The notes beneath the pieces were generated by a model that saw nothing but the letters and a program-made list of their open reading frames with translations, made no database searches and was not told where the DNA came from. Source: Candidatus Bathyarchaeota archaeon (lineage in GTDB: Archaea; Thermoproteota; Bathyarchaeia; Bathyarchaeales; Bathycorpusculaceae). From it: 64,000 nucleotides of DNA. Made by a program: the position numbers and the translations under genes. The stretch spans positions 608,001 to 672,000 of the forward strand of contig OY970340.1 of NCBI GenBank assembly GCA_963717465.1, read 5' to 3'. How positions within the stretch are numbered: position 1 is the stretch's first letter; each line of letters begins with the position of its first letter. Below are positions 7,576 to 11,276 of the stretch, piece after piece.

Positions 7576-8091
7576 ATGGGCAAGCAGAATACGCGGGCTA
7601 AGAAAGATCAGGAAAATTTGAAGGTTTTGTTTGCTCTGATAGCGCTTGGCGGCAAAAGCGATAGAGAGATTGCCAAGATCTTGAAAATGAGCAACGCAAC
7701 GTTGTCTAGGCGAAAAAAGAAGCTGGAGCAAGAGGGTTACATAAGGGAACACACGGTAATACCTGACTTCCACAAAATGGGACTAGAATTCATCGTATTT
7801 TCATTCGCAAAAACCACGGATGTAATAACACCAGCACAAGTTGAAGAAGCACAAAGCTTGATTAATAAACAGCCCGAAGTGCTATGCCTTCTGGAAGAGC
7901 GCAGCTTAGCAGGAACAAACTGGGTTGCCGTGTCCGTACACAAGGATTACAACAGTTACTTGGAACTATCTGAAAAATTGCAAAGAGAATCAACGTTCAG
8001 ACCAAATGTGGAAACGCACAGCTTCATGTTTTACACCGGCAAAAAGTTTCCAAAAACATTCTCACTACGAAACCTGGAAACACTATTCTAA
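7576..8091 (+). CDS. Lrp/AsnC-type winged-helix regulator
   Basis: SDREIAKILKMSNATLSRRKKKLEQEGYI...PDFHKMG. Confidence 0.8.
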   Translation: MGKQNTRAKKDQENLKVLFALIALGGKSDREIAKILKMSNATLSRRKKKLEQEGYIREHTVIPDFHKMGLEFIVFSFAKTTDVITPAQVEEAQSLINKQPEVLCLLEERSLAGTNWVAVSVHKDYNSYLELSEKLQRESTFRPNVETHSFMFYTGKKFPKTFSLRNLETLF

Positions 8092-8144: not shown

Positions 8145-8234
8145 GACCAGCTTAACCCAGAACTAGGCGCATGGTGCTTCAAAGCAAACCTAGCAAAAGT
8201 GTACTCAGCCAACATTGGACCAATGGGACCATAA
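8145..8234 (+). repeat. Orphan copy of the 3-prime end of the molybdopterin oxidoreductase gene
   Basis: 8166-8222 is identical (57 nt) to 10881-10937; encodes DQLNPELGAWCFKANLAKVYSANIGPMGP*. Confidence 0.9.
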
Positions 8235-8242
8235 ACCGAAAA

Positions 8243-8274
8243 TCTTTCCTTTTTCTTTCCTTTTTCCTTTTTTT
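8243..8274 (+). terminator. Oligo-T archaeal terminator after the gene remnant
   Basis: T-rich tract right after the TAA, as after the intact gene. Confidence 0.55.
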
Positions 8275-8632
8275 AAACTCCAGACTATGCCTGTTTATGG
8301 CTATGGCTATTTTAGAAGATGAAATAACGTACTAACTCGCATGCATAAGATAGACTGAGTTCTGCAATTTCCATAATATATGTTATATAAAGTGGCAGAA
8401 ACTGCAAAGAATTTGTTTTATATAAACAGAACCTTATTAGACCTTAAACATTATTAAAGAAAATAGTTCAATTATGTAACAATGTTACGGATTAAAAGAG
8501 AAAGTGTTCTGTTTTGTCGCAAAAAGCGTAATGCGCTTATTATCTAACCTTAAATAGCCATCAAACCGCATATAGGTTATTTCGTCCTAAAAACAAAATA
8601 AAAATGGGAGATAAACAAAGATAGGAGATTGA

Positions 8633-10949
8633 ATGATGAGTGTAAAGGTTGAAGATATAAAGAAATTCGATGGACAACACAGATGCGTCTGCGGTTTCTG
8701 CAGTACTGGATCTTGTCAATTGCTTGAAATAGTTCAAGACGGTAAGATCGTTAAGGTTGAGCCTGACTGGGAAAGCCCGTTTAATCCTGGGCCGTACTGT
8801 CAGAAGTGGAAGTACAGCTTAGAATACATTTACCACAAGGACAGGCCGAAGTACCCAATGAAGCGCATTGGCAAACGCGGCGAAGGCAAATGGCAAATAA
8901 TATCCTGGGCTCAGGCATATAGCGAAATATCAGCTAAAGTGAAGGAAATCGTCGCAAAATACGGCGGCCCATCCGTATGTGGCTTCTTTGGCACAGGCCG
9001 AGCCGCAAACTTAGGTCTAGGACTGGCTATTTTCCACGTATTAATAGGCAGCCCGAACTTTGGCTCTATAGCGGCTCAGACATGAGCCGGACCCACGAAC
9101 CAAGCCTTAGGATTAGGCTATGGCGTGGGAATAACATATGCAATGATTATCCCAGGTAAGACAAAAGGTATCTTTACAATTGGCACAAACCCAAGTGAGT
9201 CATGGACGTATTCATGGCCCGCATTCATTGCAGGATTAGAAGCTGGCACAAAAATGCTCAACGTCGACCCAAGATTCACGGAGACAACCAGACATTCTGA
9301 AATGTGGTTAGCGCTTAGACCCGGAACTGACACGGCCCTACTGATGGCTATAATTAATGTCATCATAGAAGAGGATCTATACGATCATGAATTTGTGGAA
9401 AAATGGACCTTTGGATTTGACAAGCTAAAAGAAAGGGCTAAACAGTATACACCTGAAAAAGCTGCGGAAATAACATGGGTTCCAGCTGAAAAAATCAGAG
9501 AAGCAGCCCGATGGATAGTGAAAAACCAGCCATGCACATTCCCATATGGCTATGCAATCGAATCAGCAGGCAGGAATTCTCTAAGCAATGTCCGCTCCAA
9601 ATATATGCTACCTGCATTAACTGGCAACATCGACATAGAAGGCGGCGAATACCTTCACGCAAAACCGAAATTCCACTCAGTTGTTGAATCAATGCACGAC
9701 ATAGTTGCGTTAGCAGATACGGATTCAATGATGAAACAGGTAGGAATAGACAACCATAGGGCGCTAAACTTCTATATTCATCCTCTGATGCAACAGGCAA
9801 GCCGATGGAAAAGGATACTGGGGTGACACTCACTCCTCAGGATCAAGAGGTCCAAACTTCTGCAACTTTATGGATACAATGGTATCGGAGAAACCCTATC
9901 CAATCAAGGCTATGCTATCCGGTGAAGTAGGTCCAATGAGGAATTATCCAAATATAAAGAAGGTTTATGAGGGTCTCAAGAAGCTTGAACTCTTCGTGTA
10001 CATTGAAGACGCTCAAATGACTCCTGAAGCCATGCTAGCAGACTACGTACTACCTGGCACCAGCCAATTCGAAAGACCTTCCGGCTATGCAACTCTTACT
10101 GGTCAAGGCGAGATTGAATTTGAGATTGCAGGAGACCGCGCAATGGCAAGCAAGATACCTGGTCTGTGGGATCTTGAAGACGATACGATCATATTCCGAA
10201 ACCTCGCTGTCGGAGTACTTGGTAAGGAATTAGTTGATAAAGTTTGGAAATGGAAGACTCCCGAGGAATTCCAAGACTGGTTCTACGAACCCGCAGGTTG
10301 GACTCGAAAACAAGTTATTGAGGAATGGAAAGGTGTACCACCATATGAGCCCAGATTCAAGAAATACGAGGAAGTTAACCCAGAGACTGGACTGGTTAGA
10401 GGCTTTGGTACTCCTGAGGGCAAAGTTGCGTTCTACTCGACTATTCTTGAGCAGATTGAATACGATCCGTTGCCGTATTATCAGGAATGCGCTTGGACAC
10501 CAATTAGTGCACCTGATATTGCAAAAGACTACCCATTCATTATGACTAGTGGAGCCAGATTCCAAGAAGCCCACCATGGCGAACTACGACACATCAGCTT
10601 AATGCGGCATTTGCGTCCATTCCCACGTGTAAAGATGCACCCACTGACAGCACGCAACATGGGTATCGGAGACGGCGAATGGGTCTACATTGAAACACCT
10701 GTTGGCAGATGCATGCAGCAAGTACGGTACGATTTCGGAGTTAACCCAAAGGTAGTTTCTCCTGAACATGGCTGGTGGAGACCAGAATTGCCAGCTGAAG
10801 AACCAACACTGTACGGATGGACAGACTGGAACATCGACGTAACAATTCCAAACGATGATGAACAACTCAGCCCAGAACTTGGCGCATGGTGCTTCAAAGC
10901 AAACCTAGCAAAAGTGTACTCAGCCAACATTGGACCAGTAGGTCCATAA
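8633..10949 (+). CDS. Mo/W-bisPGD oxidoreductase (DMSO reductase family, acetylene hydratase/catechol dehydroxylase-like) with in-frame TGA (candidate Sec) at 9083-9085 and one frameshift near 9810
   Basis: CGFCSTGSC...C 4Fe-4S motif, YPMKRIGKRGEGKW, VDPRFTET, WLALRPGTD, LTGNIDIEGG, ADYVLP, MHPLTA; no Tat signal. Confidence 0.9.
9092..9129 (+). promoter_or_regulatory. Putative bacterial-type SECIS hairpin directly downstream of UGA
   Basis: CCCACG/CGTGGG, CCA/TGG and AGCCT/AGGCT stems, bulged U, GGAU loop starting 25 nt after UGA. Confidence 0.7.
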
Positions 10950-10955
10950 ATTAAA

Positions 10956-10989
10956 TTTTTCCCTTTTTGTTTTTTCTTTTTTTTCTTTT
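10956..10989 (+). terminator. Oligo-T terminator
   Basis: Long T-rich tract right after the stop codon. Confidence 0.65.
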
Positions 10990-11276
10990 GACATAAGTTT
11001 AAGCAAAATTAAGATTACTTTGCCCAAACGCTTCTTGCCTCAGAACGTGTTTAGCCGTGATATATTTAGAGCCAGACGTAATTAGGCTTCTTTTAAGCTT
11101 CTTTAATATTATATCTTCATAATGAATATTCCAATTTGGAATTTATTTGAAGCTTTTGCAAAAATTTTTTATCAATTTTCCCATTAATTCAAACTATAGT
11201 TCTGAAATATCATGATTATAAAAACGATAAATCTTTATATAATATTTTTGACATATTAAGATAGCAGGGAAGGTAA

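Follow-up and report, generated by a model that had tools for sequence, protein, structure and literature searches.

This locus raises the question of how an archaeon distinguishes a UGA codon that encodes selenocysteine (Sec) from one that terminates translation. The 64,000-nucleotide (nt) stretch analyzed here, hereafter the window, originates from Candidatus Bathyarchaeota archaeon (assembly GCA_963717465.1, contig OY970340.1, positions 608,001–672,000 of the forward strand). Its plus strand contains, at positions 8633–10949, the gene of a molybdopterin-type oxidoreductase, in which an in-frame UGA at 9083–9085 is followed by a hairpin at 9092–9129. According to reviews published up to 2026, the selenocysteine insertion sequence (SECIS) elements of archaea and eukaryotes are placed in untranslated regions (UTRs), and only those of bacteria lie in the coding sequence (CDS) (PMC13188914, PMC9499178, PMC11227280). 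A first-pass annotation of the window had described the hairpin as a SECIS of the bacterial type and proposed that the archaeon uses a horizontally acquired, bacterial-style Sec system. The comparisons presented below indicate that the hairpin is probably a local signal inside the CDS, which functions as the SECIS, and that it does so within a Sec system of the archaeal kind.

The UGA codon at 9083–9085 is predicted to stand for Sec at the metal-ligand position of the enzyme. It corresponds to residue 151, in a column that is an invariant Cys in 11 of 11 full-length homologs with approximately 40% identity. In the structure of acetylene hydratase (2e7z), the equivalent residue is the Cys within MYMCIGNT, which is the tungsten ligand of that enzyme. 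A tblastn search of the genome, which is a single 3.05-Mb contig, identified ten more paralogs with 42–85% identity to the window copy, most of them 70–85% identical, along with a single Cys-type relative (31%). TGA occupies the column of residue 151 in all 11 paralogs. This TGA is the sole in-frame stop in the eight intact paralogs; the remaining three, including the copy in the window, are frameshifted as assembled. Elsewhere in the genome TGA is an ordinary stop codon, terminating 350 of 1381 open reading frames (ORFs) of at least 250 codons. The UGA thus stands opposite Cys in homologs, is kept in the TGA-containing relatives, and occurs in a genome that encodes the machinery for Sec synthesis and insertion. 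It could be argued that the TGA is a real stop in split or dead genes, or that a near-cognate tRNA decodes it without any use of selenium, as three of the 11 copies are frameshifted and TGA is a common stop in the genome. However, eight copies are intact apart from one TGA exactly at the catalytic Cys column, the full Sec machinery is encoded, and neither half of the protein alone would carry the cofactor-binding domains, which makes such an explanation very improbable.

The hairpin downstream of the UGA is the minimum free energy (MFE) structure predicted by RNAfold for positions 9083–9135, with an energy of -19.9 kcal/mol, 77% of the ensemble, and a z-score of -3.43. Its arms are those identified in the first-pass annotation. 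The lower stem pairs CCCACG (9092–9097) with CGTGGG (9124–9129), and the middle and upper stem pairs CCA (9100–9102) with TGG (9121–9123) and AGCCT (9103–9107) with AGGCT (9115–9119). Nucleotides AA at 9098–9099 are unpaired, A 9120 is bulged, and the 38-nt hairpin is closed by a 7-nt loop UAGGAUU (9108–9114). The apex had been drawn differently, with a bulged U, an A-U closing pair, and a GGAU tetraloop; this arrangement is possible but is not the one predicted by RNAfold. Six unpaired nucleotides (9086–9091) separate the UGA from the hairpin, so that, with the U of the UGA as nt 1, the stem begins at nt 10. Among dinucleotide-shuffled sequences, two of 200 are as stable as the hairpin, and folds of -19 kcal/mol or lower are formed by only 0.57% of 3000 57-nt segments drawn at random from the coding sequence of the genome. 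A GAA_A motif built from the unpaired AA and the bulged A was considered and rejected: the paralogs do not conserve the AA, which moreover does not face the bulged A.

The hairpin is present after the TGA in all 11 paralogs, with energies from -16 to -24.5 kcal/mol, and was not seen in Cys homologs. Its stem starts at nt 10 in nine of the ten paralogs recovered by the genome scan described below, and at nt 11 in the tenth (p1822k). When the structure of the window copy is imposed on an ungapped 60-column alignment of the 11 paralogs, standard pairs occupy 89% of the pair cells, compared with 23–47% when the 3' partners are slid by one to three columns. Five of the 14 pairs have changes on both sides, a number reached by four of 500 shuffles, and the covariation score of 0.187 (shuffled mean 0.120) is reached by none of 500. 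Two of the double changes are silent on both sides, combining Leu TTA>CTA with Leu TTA>TTG, and occur in two copies. The most divergent paralogs, with 42–70% identity, retain the stem with different bases (GGUU/AACU) or with the register displaced by one. Since no close Sec-type orthologs of the enzyme were found, the covariation evidence comes from paralogs only.

The same arrangement occurs at Sec codons of unrelated genes. A screen for in-frame TGAs based on codon usage alone returned 824 mostly spurious candidates and was dropped in favor of hairpin-filtered scans. The genome-wide scan considered all TGA triplets, and demanded a hairpin starting at nt 9–12 and open frames with coding-like codon usage on both sides. 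It yielded 50 sites, of which the best 12 are HdrA, MvhD, and ten of the paralogs, so that other UGA-plus-hairpin genes, which the first-pass annotation had suggested looking for, do exist in this genome. HdrA and MvhD are encoded as one fused 858-residue ORF on the minus strand (C1:1522496–1519923; L213:924–3497), with two Sec codons in the contexts FPTLDCSI-U-IEGPRM and FMCNW-U-GYAGAD and a T6 run approximately 15 nt past the stop. The two codons are 1.4 kb apart and have separate hairpins, both of which start at nt 10, with energies of -25.8 kcal/mol for HdrA and approximately -23 kcal/mol for MvhD. In a null model in which the peptide is kept and the codons are resampled, with 1000 synonymous recodings per sequence, none of the recodings of HdrA and seven of those of MvhD are as stable as the native sequence.

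Relatives of this archaeon provide a natural comparison. SepSecS, a component of the archaeal Sec pathway, was detected in ten of 151 sampled genomes in an order-wide search. Four of the nine SepSecS-positive genomes other than the one studied here have a Sec-type HdrA–MvhD ortholog that is 81–86% identical and has TGA at both columns; all of these TGAs are followed by a hairpin, with energies of -20.7 to -30 kcal/mol. By contrast, Cys-type copies, two of them from genomes that also have the Sec-type ortholog (G135 and G138) and the others from two further SepSecS-positive relatives, form unrelated folds of -5.5 to -14.2 kcal/mol. In the copies of G135 and G138 the peptide is nearly the same as that of the Sec copies (IEGPKMVD versus IEGPRMVE). 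The Cys copies of G135 and G138 are the best natural control for the hairpin. Among 16 loci of HdrA homologs in relatives, seven in-frame TGAs were found in six loci, none of them at the Sec columns. The hdrA-mvhD gene of the relatives adjoins their cluster of Sec genes. Furthermore, a hairpin beginning at nt 10 follows the UGA of selD in three Sec-using relatives that are more distant. When 401 genomes of the phylum were searched, SelD was detected in 11, all from the same order, and no Sec-containing SelD was added to those already known. Eight genomes of the same genus (G027, G048, G052, G064, G068, G084, G092, and G108; L293–L300) encode a Cys-type SelD, although the order-wide search detected no SepSecS in any of them. 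They may use selenophosphate for another purpose, or the genomes may be incomplete.

One more hairpin at nt 10 occurs in a candidate selenoprotein gene. An MtaA/URO-D-like ORF of 412 codons on the minus strand (C1:2824225–2822990; L292:91–1326) contains two in-frame TGAs, in the contexts PFVISF-U-EEPY and FMMS-U-GCPMGH, the second of which is followed by a hairpin at nt 10. The match to URO-D that spans both TGAs is weak (E = 0.0077, under the cut-off). It is possible that this ORF encodes a new methyltransferase-like selenoprotein with two Sec residues.

The Sec system that would read these codons is archaeal in kind. The genome encodes SepSecS (488.9 bits), two tRNA-Sec (71.8 and 61.8 bits; anticodon tca according to ARAGORN), a SelD with one in-frame TGA, which makes it Sec-containing, and two ORFs of 744 and 740 residues in which PSTK is fused to the archaeal elongation factor aSelB. 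One PSTK–aSelB gene lies approximately 70 nt downstream of selD. Both fusions have the domain order KTI12/PSTK, EF-Tu GTPase, domain 2, archaeal SelB domain III (PF21440), and a stretch resembling the C-terminus of Tsr1/BMS1, and neither has a Pfam match to the winged-helix domains of SelB. Archaeal SelB (4ac9) is matched from one end to the other by the aSelB part of the first copy (E = 1.3e-79, chain residues 19–478 of 482), whereas the alignments to bacterial SelB cover only query residues 13–306 (4zu9) or 11–266 (5lzb), roughly domains I–III. The SelB model is matched only at positions 2–338 of 581. SelA was not found in the genome, the completeness of which is estimated at 88%; the best score was 20.5 bits against a cut-off of 267.9. 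Because SelA is lacking, both SelB-like proteins are of the archaeal type, and SepSecS and PSTK are present, the system is archaeal and its transfer from bacteria is not supported.

The PSTK–aSelB fusion is present in all ten SepSecS-positive genomes of the order, and only the genome studied here has two copies. PMC8762117 describes such a fusion as part of an atypical Sec-encoding system found in diverse Bathyarchaeota and one Archaeoglobus. The present genome shares with that system PSTK and aSelB in one ORF, and differs in having a second, divergent fusion and a second tRNA-Sec; the word SECIS is absent from that text (PMC8762117). The second fusion (C1:2829585–2827363; L028:364–2586; minus strand) is 54% identical to the first, and its G2–G4 GTPase motifs appear degenerate by eye (EMPGN, SKID). 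The second tRNA-Sec (L028:2639–2724) adjoins it and differs from the first at few positions; by eye, a change at position 2 of the acceptor stem looks compensated.

The resemblance of the hairpin to bacterial SECIS (bSECIS) elements is one of placement and geometry. As in the prototype from Escherichia coli fdhF, it is a stem-loop located inside the ORF immediately after the UGA, which bears out the bacterial-like position noted in the first-pass annotation. The bSECIS consensus of Zhang and Gladyshev, as quoted in PMC13188914, specifies a loop of 3–9 nt, an upper stem of 4–16 base pairs, 16–37 nt between the UGA and the loop, and an MFE of -7.5 kcal/mol or lower. The hairpin of the window has a 7-nt loop containing GG, an 8-base-pair upper stem with one bulge, and 22 nt between the UGA and the loop, and its energy is well inside this limit. 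However, bSECIS elements have a G in loop position 1 or 2, whereas the Gs of the predicted loop are in positions 3–4; the rule would apply only if A27–U32 closed a GGAU loop, which is not predicted. The hairpin also differs from bSECIS elements in its fixed 6-nt unpaired spacer before the stem and in occurring in a genome without SelA and a winged-helix SelB. Rfam includes curated SECIS models, and a search of the hairpin region (9040–9180) returned no match to any family at E ≤ 10.

It follows from these comparisons that the horizontal acquisition of a complete bacterial-type system, with SelA, winged-helix SelB, and bSECIS, together with the enzyme gene, is almost certainly not the explanation for the hairpin. 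The position inside the CDS and the loose agreement with bSECIS geometry (PMC13188914) would be accounted for by such a transfer, as would the bacterial labels of most of the nearest homologs that the enzyme has in other genomes. Against it stand the archaeal machinery, the lack of Rfam matches, the occurrence of the same hairpins at the native hdrA-mvhD, which in relatives lies beside the Sec cluster, and at selD of relatives, and the absence of TGA from the 80 closest homologs of the enzyme, among which no Sec-bearing bacterial donor was seen.

The flanks of the selenoprotein genes were also searched for a SECIS in a UTR. The 300-nt 3' flanks of 14 selenoprotein genes contain no candidate for an AUGA-helix-GA kink-turn (0.29 would be expected in 14 random pieces), and no 9-mer is common to more than three of them. 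In 11 of the 14 flanks a run of at least five Ts starts 5–30 nt past the stop. In the window, T-runs begin at 10956, right after the TAA stop codon at 10947–10949, and the view of the first-pass annotation that the oligo-T leaves little room for a 3' SECIS is therefore upheld. The 3' flank of the window gene has five Rfam matches with E of 2.1–8.6, which is chance level, and none of them is to a SECIS family. No Rfam family was detected at E ≤ 1 in six selenoprotein loci comprising 22.7 kb, and a scan of the whole window at gathering thresholds found one tRNA only.

Known archaeal SECIS elements share with the system described here the PSTK/SepSecS/aSelB pathway and, in part, the selenoproteins SelD, HdrA, and MvhD/FrhD (PMC11227280, PMC4989117). 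By contrast, the euryarchaeal eaSECIS, with its GAA_A bulge, and the Asgard element resembling eukaryotic SECIS (eSECIS-like), with its AUGA_GA kink-turn, lie in the 3' UTR, or in the 5' UTR for one gene, whereas the present hairpin is in the CDS and has no AUGA. No description of a SECIS inside an archaeal CDS was found in the literature searched, including PMC5424206, PMC9723677, and PMC11291895; supplements (Tables S4–S6 of PMC11227280, the supplementary figures of PMC8762117, and Supplementary Data 10–11 of PMC11291895) could bear on the novelty of the arrangement.

Several observations weigh against the reading of the hairpin as the SECIS. The first group concerns the significance of the fold. 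The rows of the alignment are related paralogs, so that the shuffle control overstates the significance of the covariation. The peptide following the Sec residue, AGPTNQALGLGYGVG, is GC-rich and structure-prone, and its recodings average -13 to -15 kcal/mol across the paralogs. For the window copy, 27 of 1000 recodings are as stable as the native sequence, and their mean of -13.2 kcal/mol compares with a coding background of -8.5 kcal/mol. Five of the 11 paralogs are not past the 5% tail of the recodings (51–138 of 1000), and the family spans tails from 0 to 14%, the lower end being represented by paralog p2797k (0 of 1000). These numbers are what would be expected if the hairpin were a by-product of a conserved GC-rich peptide and of recent duplication, without a role in recoding, and the 70–85% identity of most paralogs means that its conservation is partly inherited. 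However, a by-product would not account for compensatory double changes, two of them silent on both sides, or for the retention of the stem with different letters in the copies that are 42–70% identical. Neither would it account for hairpins at the same offset in hdrA, in mvhD, and in selD of relatives, for their absence from Cys paralogs with nearly identical peptides, or for the failure of any HdrA recoding to reach the native stability. A by-product is therefore an improbable explanation, and the reading as a local signal is retained.

The second group of observations concerns the generality of the hairpin and the identity of its reader. SelD of this genome (C1:951702 onward; L027) and that of its nearest kin are without a hairpin at nt 10, and 361 of 1000 recodings are as stable as the native sequence of the former; in this gene and its ortholog from G135 a longer structure may be formed at approximately nt 24–89, with inner sequences that differ between the two. 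In the MtaA-like gene, the evidence for a hairpin after the first of the two TGAs is ambiguous. By eye, no sequence motif is common to the hairpins of different families. The aSelB part of the fusion has no extra RNA-binding domain, and archaeal SelB reportedly does not bind SECIS (PMC9499178). In addition, the scan of the 3' flanks demands seven contiguous pairs and would miss irregular elements, and the Rfam scan of the window is the sole check of 5' UTRs.

Some of these observations would be explained if the hairpin were only an enhancer of recoding, with the true SECIS located elsewhere on the mRNA, in the 5' UTR or far downstream, or acting in trans. A precedent is the Sec redefinition element (SRE) of SEPN1, a stem-loop in the CDS downstream of the UGA, which stimulates read-through next to a SECIS in the 3' UTR (PMC2248747), and the SECIS of Methanocaldococcus jannaschii fdhA is reportedly in the 5' UTR (PMC9499178). 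The lack of a hairpin at nt 10 in SelD of this genome, which demonstrates that this hairpin is not universal, and the lack of a motif common to different families are in agreement with an auxiliary role. The likeness to the SRE includes its location shortly 3' of the Sec codon, and the SRE is likewise spaced 6 nt from its UGA. However, the SRE acts beside a distal SECIS, and no candidate for one was found here in the Rfam scans and the crude flank scan: kink-turns and shared 9-mers are lacking from the 14 flanks, T-runs follow most of the stops closely, and no Rfam SECIS family was detected in the window or the six other loci. Moreover, the two Sec codons of hdrA-mvhD have separate hairpins. 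An auxiliary role is for these reasons considered unlikely, although it deserves more weight than the other alternatives discussed here, and the reading of the hairpin as a local signal, functionally the SECIS, remains the probable one.

From these sequence comparisons we infer both that the hairpin is required and what might read it. As a local recoding signal, the hairpin at 9092–9129 would be the equivalent of a SECIS inside the CDS. With the UGA in the A site, its base would be located approximately at the mRNA entry channel of the ribosome, and placement at the entry site is the general geometry of recoding stimulators. The hairpin would tip the balance at the UGA away from termination, with the archaeal elongation factor, which here is fused to PSTK, delivering Sec-tRNASec. 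Possible routes are the recruitment of the factor (PSTK–aSelB:GTP:Sec-tRNA) or of an adaptor, a stall of the ribosome or slower termination, or both. Spacing is constant among unrelated genes and no motif is common to them, a combination that fits a role set by position; the loops, which are G/A-rich (UAGGAUU, GGAA, GAGA), may leave room for loose recognition. By analogy to SBP2, the second PSTK–aSelB, with its apparently degenerate GTPase motifs and its own tRNA-Sec, might be an adaptor that binds the hairpin.

The Sec form of the enzyme seems to be restricted to this lineage. Among the 80 best homolog loci from the genomes of other species (GTDB representatives, best identity 44%), none has TGA at the column of residue 151; 63 have TGC or TGT, and in the remaining 17 the adjoining sequence contains a Cys displaced by one or two positions. 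Metagenome contigs searched for Sec-type orthologs provided a best identity of 44%. In 61 genomes of the order, including the one studied here, the family was matched in five, and none except the present genome exceeded 48% identity. The enzyme family was found in none of the nine other SepSecS-positive relatives. Because TGA is absent from the 80 homologs, the metagenome loci do not exceed 44% identity, and the family is missing from the nine Sec-using relatives, the change from Cys to Sec and the expansion of the family look lineage-specific, and the hairpin probably arose in place.

The product of the window gene has matches to the Pfam families Molybdop_Fe4S4 (PF04879, E = 6.4e-08), Molybdopterin (PF00384, 8.5e-18), and Molydop_binding (PF01568, 9.8e-12). 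These Fe4S4, molybdopterin oxidoreductase, and dinucleotide-binding domains, together with the ligand column that holds Cys, Sec, or Ser, place it in the dimethyl sulfoxide reductase superfamily. The nearest solved structure to an intact paralog is acetylene hydratase 2e7z, a W-bisMGD enzyme of the same superfamily (E = 1.6e-104, query residues 18–763, the full length), with thiosulfate/polysulfide reductase 2vpw far behind (3.1e-56). The NCBIfam models of the formate dehydrogenase alpha subunit (210 bits, cut-off 666) and PhsA (194 bits, cut-off 694) are both far under their cut-offs. The gene is predicted to encode a cytoplasmic tungsten/molybdenum (W/Mo) enzyme with a bis-pyranopterin guanine dinucleotide (bisPGD) cofactor, belonging to the acetylene hydratase branch. 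It shares with 2e7z the N-terminal Fe4S4 motif and the alignment of the ligand residue; however, their identity is approximately 35–40% at most, and the window enzyme has Sec where 2e7z has Cys.

The reading frame of the window copy is broken twice, by the TGA and by a frame change between approximately 9789 and 9826. The first part of the CDS (8633–9799) includes the Sec codon, the Molybdop_Fe4S4 domain, and most of the Molybdopterin domain, and matches 2e7z with E = 3.1e-53. The second part (9801–10949), in the +1 frame, includes the end of the Molybdopterin domain and Molydop_binding, is colinear with the paralogs and 100% identical to query residues 393–771 in tblastn, and ends with the TAA. 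In the frame of 8633 the stop lies at 9824–9826, whereas that of 9870 has no stop from 9789 onward. Pairwise DNA alignments to two paralogs locate a one-base insertion at 9799–9800, where the window has AA and the paralogs have A (GCAAGC versus GCAGC), and skipping one base produces a 771-residue protein colinear with the paralogs. Contigs from metagenome runs X1 (record 5), X2 (record 13), and X3 (record 22), from two studies and with 92–99% likeness to the window, lack one base, reported at 9806. Therefore, the insertion is either a consensus error or a strain-private frameshift, the copy being broken as assembled, and in close relatives from natural samples the frame is open. None of the 40 base differences listed for these contigs, in addition to which 105 exist, falls within 9089–9150, and the flanks vary, which is no more than a hint of constraint. 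Two other paralogs, at C1:133145–130832 (L048/L050) and C1:2799584–2797289 (L047/L052), have, each at another place in the gene, the single-base insertions GCG[A]AGC and AGG[T]TCG, bringing the frameshifted copies to three of 11. RNA run X8 includes three contigs on this stretch, two of them of 151 nt (9845–9995 and 10028–10177) with 6–7 differences each, which is too little for a claim of expression. The word shares are small (at most 0.15) in all ten runs that hold the stretch, and no habitat claim is drawn from them.

The surroundings of the gene are archaeal in character. The window encodes a deoxyhypusine synthase (7.6e-88) and, at 7576–8091, just upstream of the palindromic motif TTTTGTCGCAAAA, a helix-turn-helix/MarR-type regulator identified by Pfam. 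The TATA-like box CTTAAATA is located at 8549–8556, as annotated previously, and is a putative promoter element, since AACCTTAAATA-like boxes precede most of the paralogs; together with the T-tracts, this conserved box agrees with the archaeal expression signals claimed in the first-pass annotation. The motif TTTTGTCGCAAAA at 8512–8524 is a candidate operator, which is common to the promoters of the paralogs. By eye, motifs resembling TTTTGT(C/G)GCAAAA occur approximately 25 nt upstream of a TTAAATA box in most of the 11 copies, and this pair of motifs suggests a common regulator. A Shine-Dalgarno-like GGAG at 8624–8627, 6 nt before the ATG, corresponds to the TAGGAGAT that precedes the start codon in most paralogs, and oligo-T tracts resembling archaeal terminators extend over 10956–10999. 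Between the regulator gene and the promoter, positions 8145–8274 form a 130-nt direct repeat of 10860–10989 with 81% identity, and a tblastn match within it (C1:616127–616231) corresponds to query residues 737–771. The repeat appears to be the remnant of the 3' end and terminator of an earlier paralogous copy, or a duplication junction. The promoter motifs, the GGAG, the T-tracts, and the repeat are all on the plus strand.

It is quite possible, although somewhat short of probable, that the clade with the PSTK–aSelB fusion uses a third archaeal Sec signal: a hairpin of variable sequence exactly 6 nt after the UGA, which suffices without a UTR element, its reader being either the fusion protein or the ribosome itself. 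If this is true, new selenoproteins could arise by a change from Cys to UGA together with a few mostly silent changes downstream. Because a local signal needs no UTR, such an origin would be easy, which would explain the presence of an 11-copy W/Mo family and an MtaA-like enzyme in one genome. The seven selenoprotein families that PMC11227280 lists for Asgard archaea do not include the W/Mo enzyme class. If the signal is local, searches for selenoproteins that use models of UTR SECIS would miss whole selenoproteomes, here eight intact W/Mo genes and three frameshifted copies. The local marking of UGA by an archaeal PSTK/SepSecS/aSelB system would break the division between domains of life into UTR and CDS signals, and it would allow the essential functions of an archaeal SECIS to be addressed in a simpler system.

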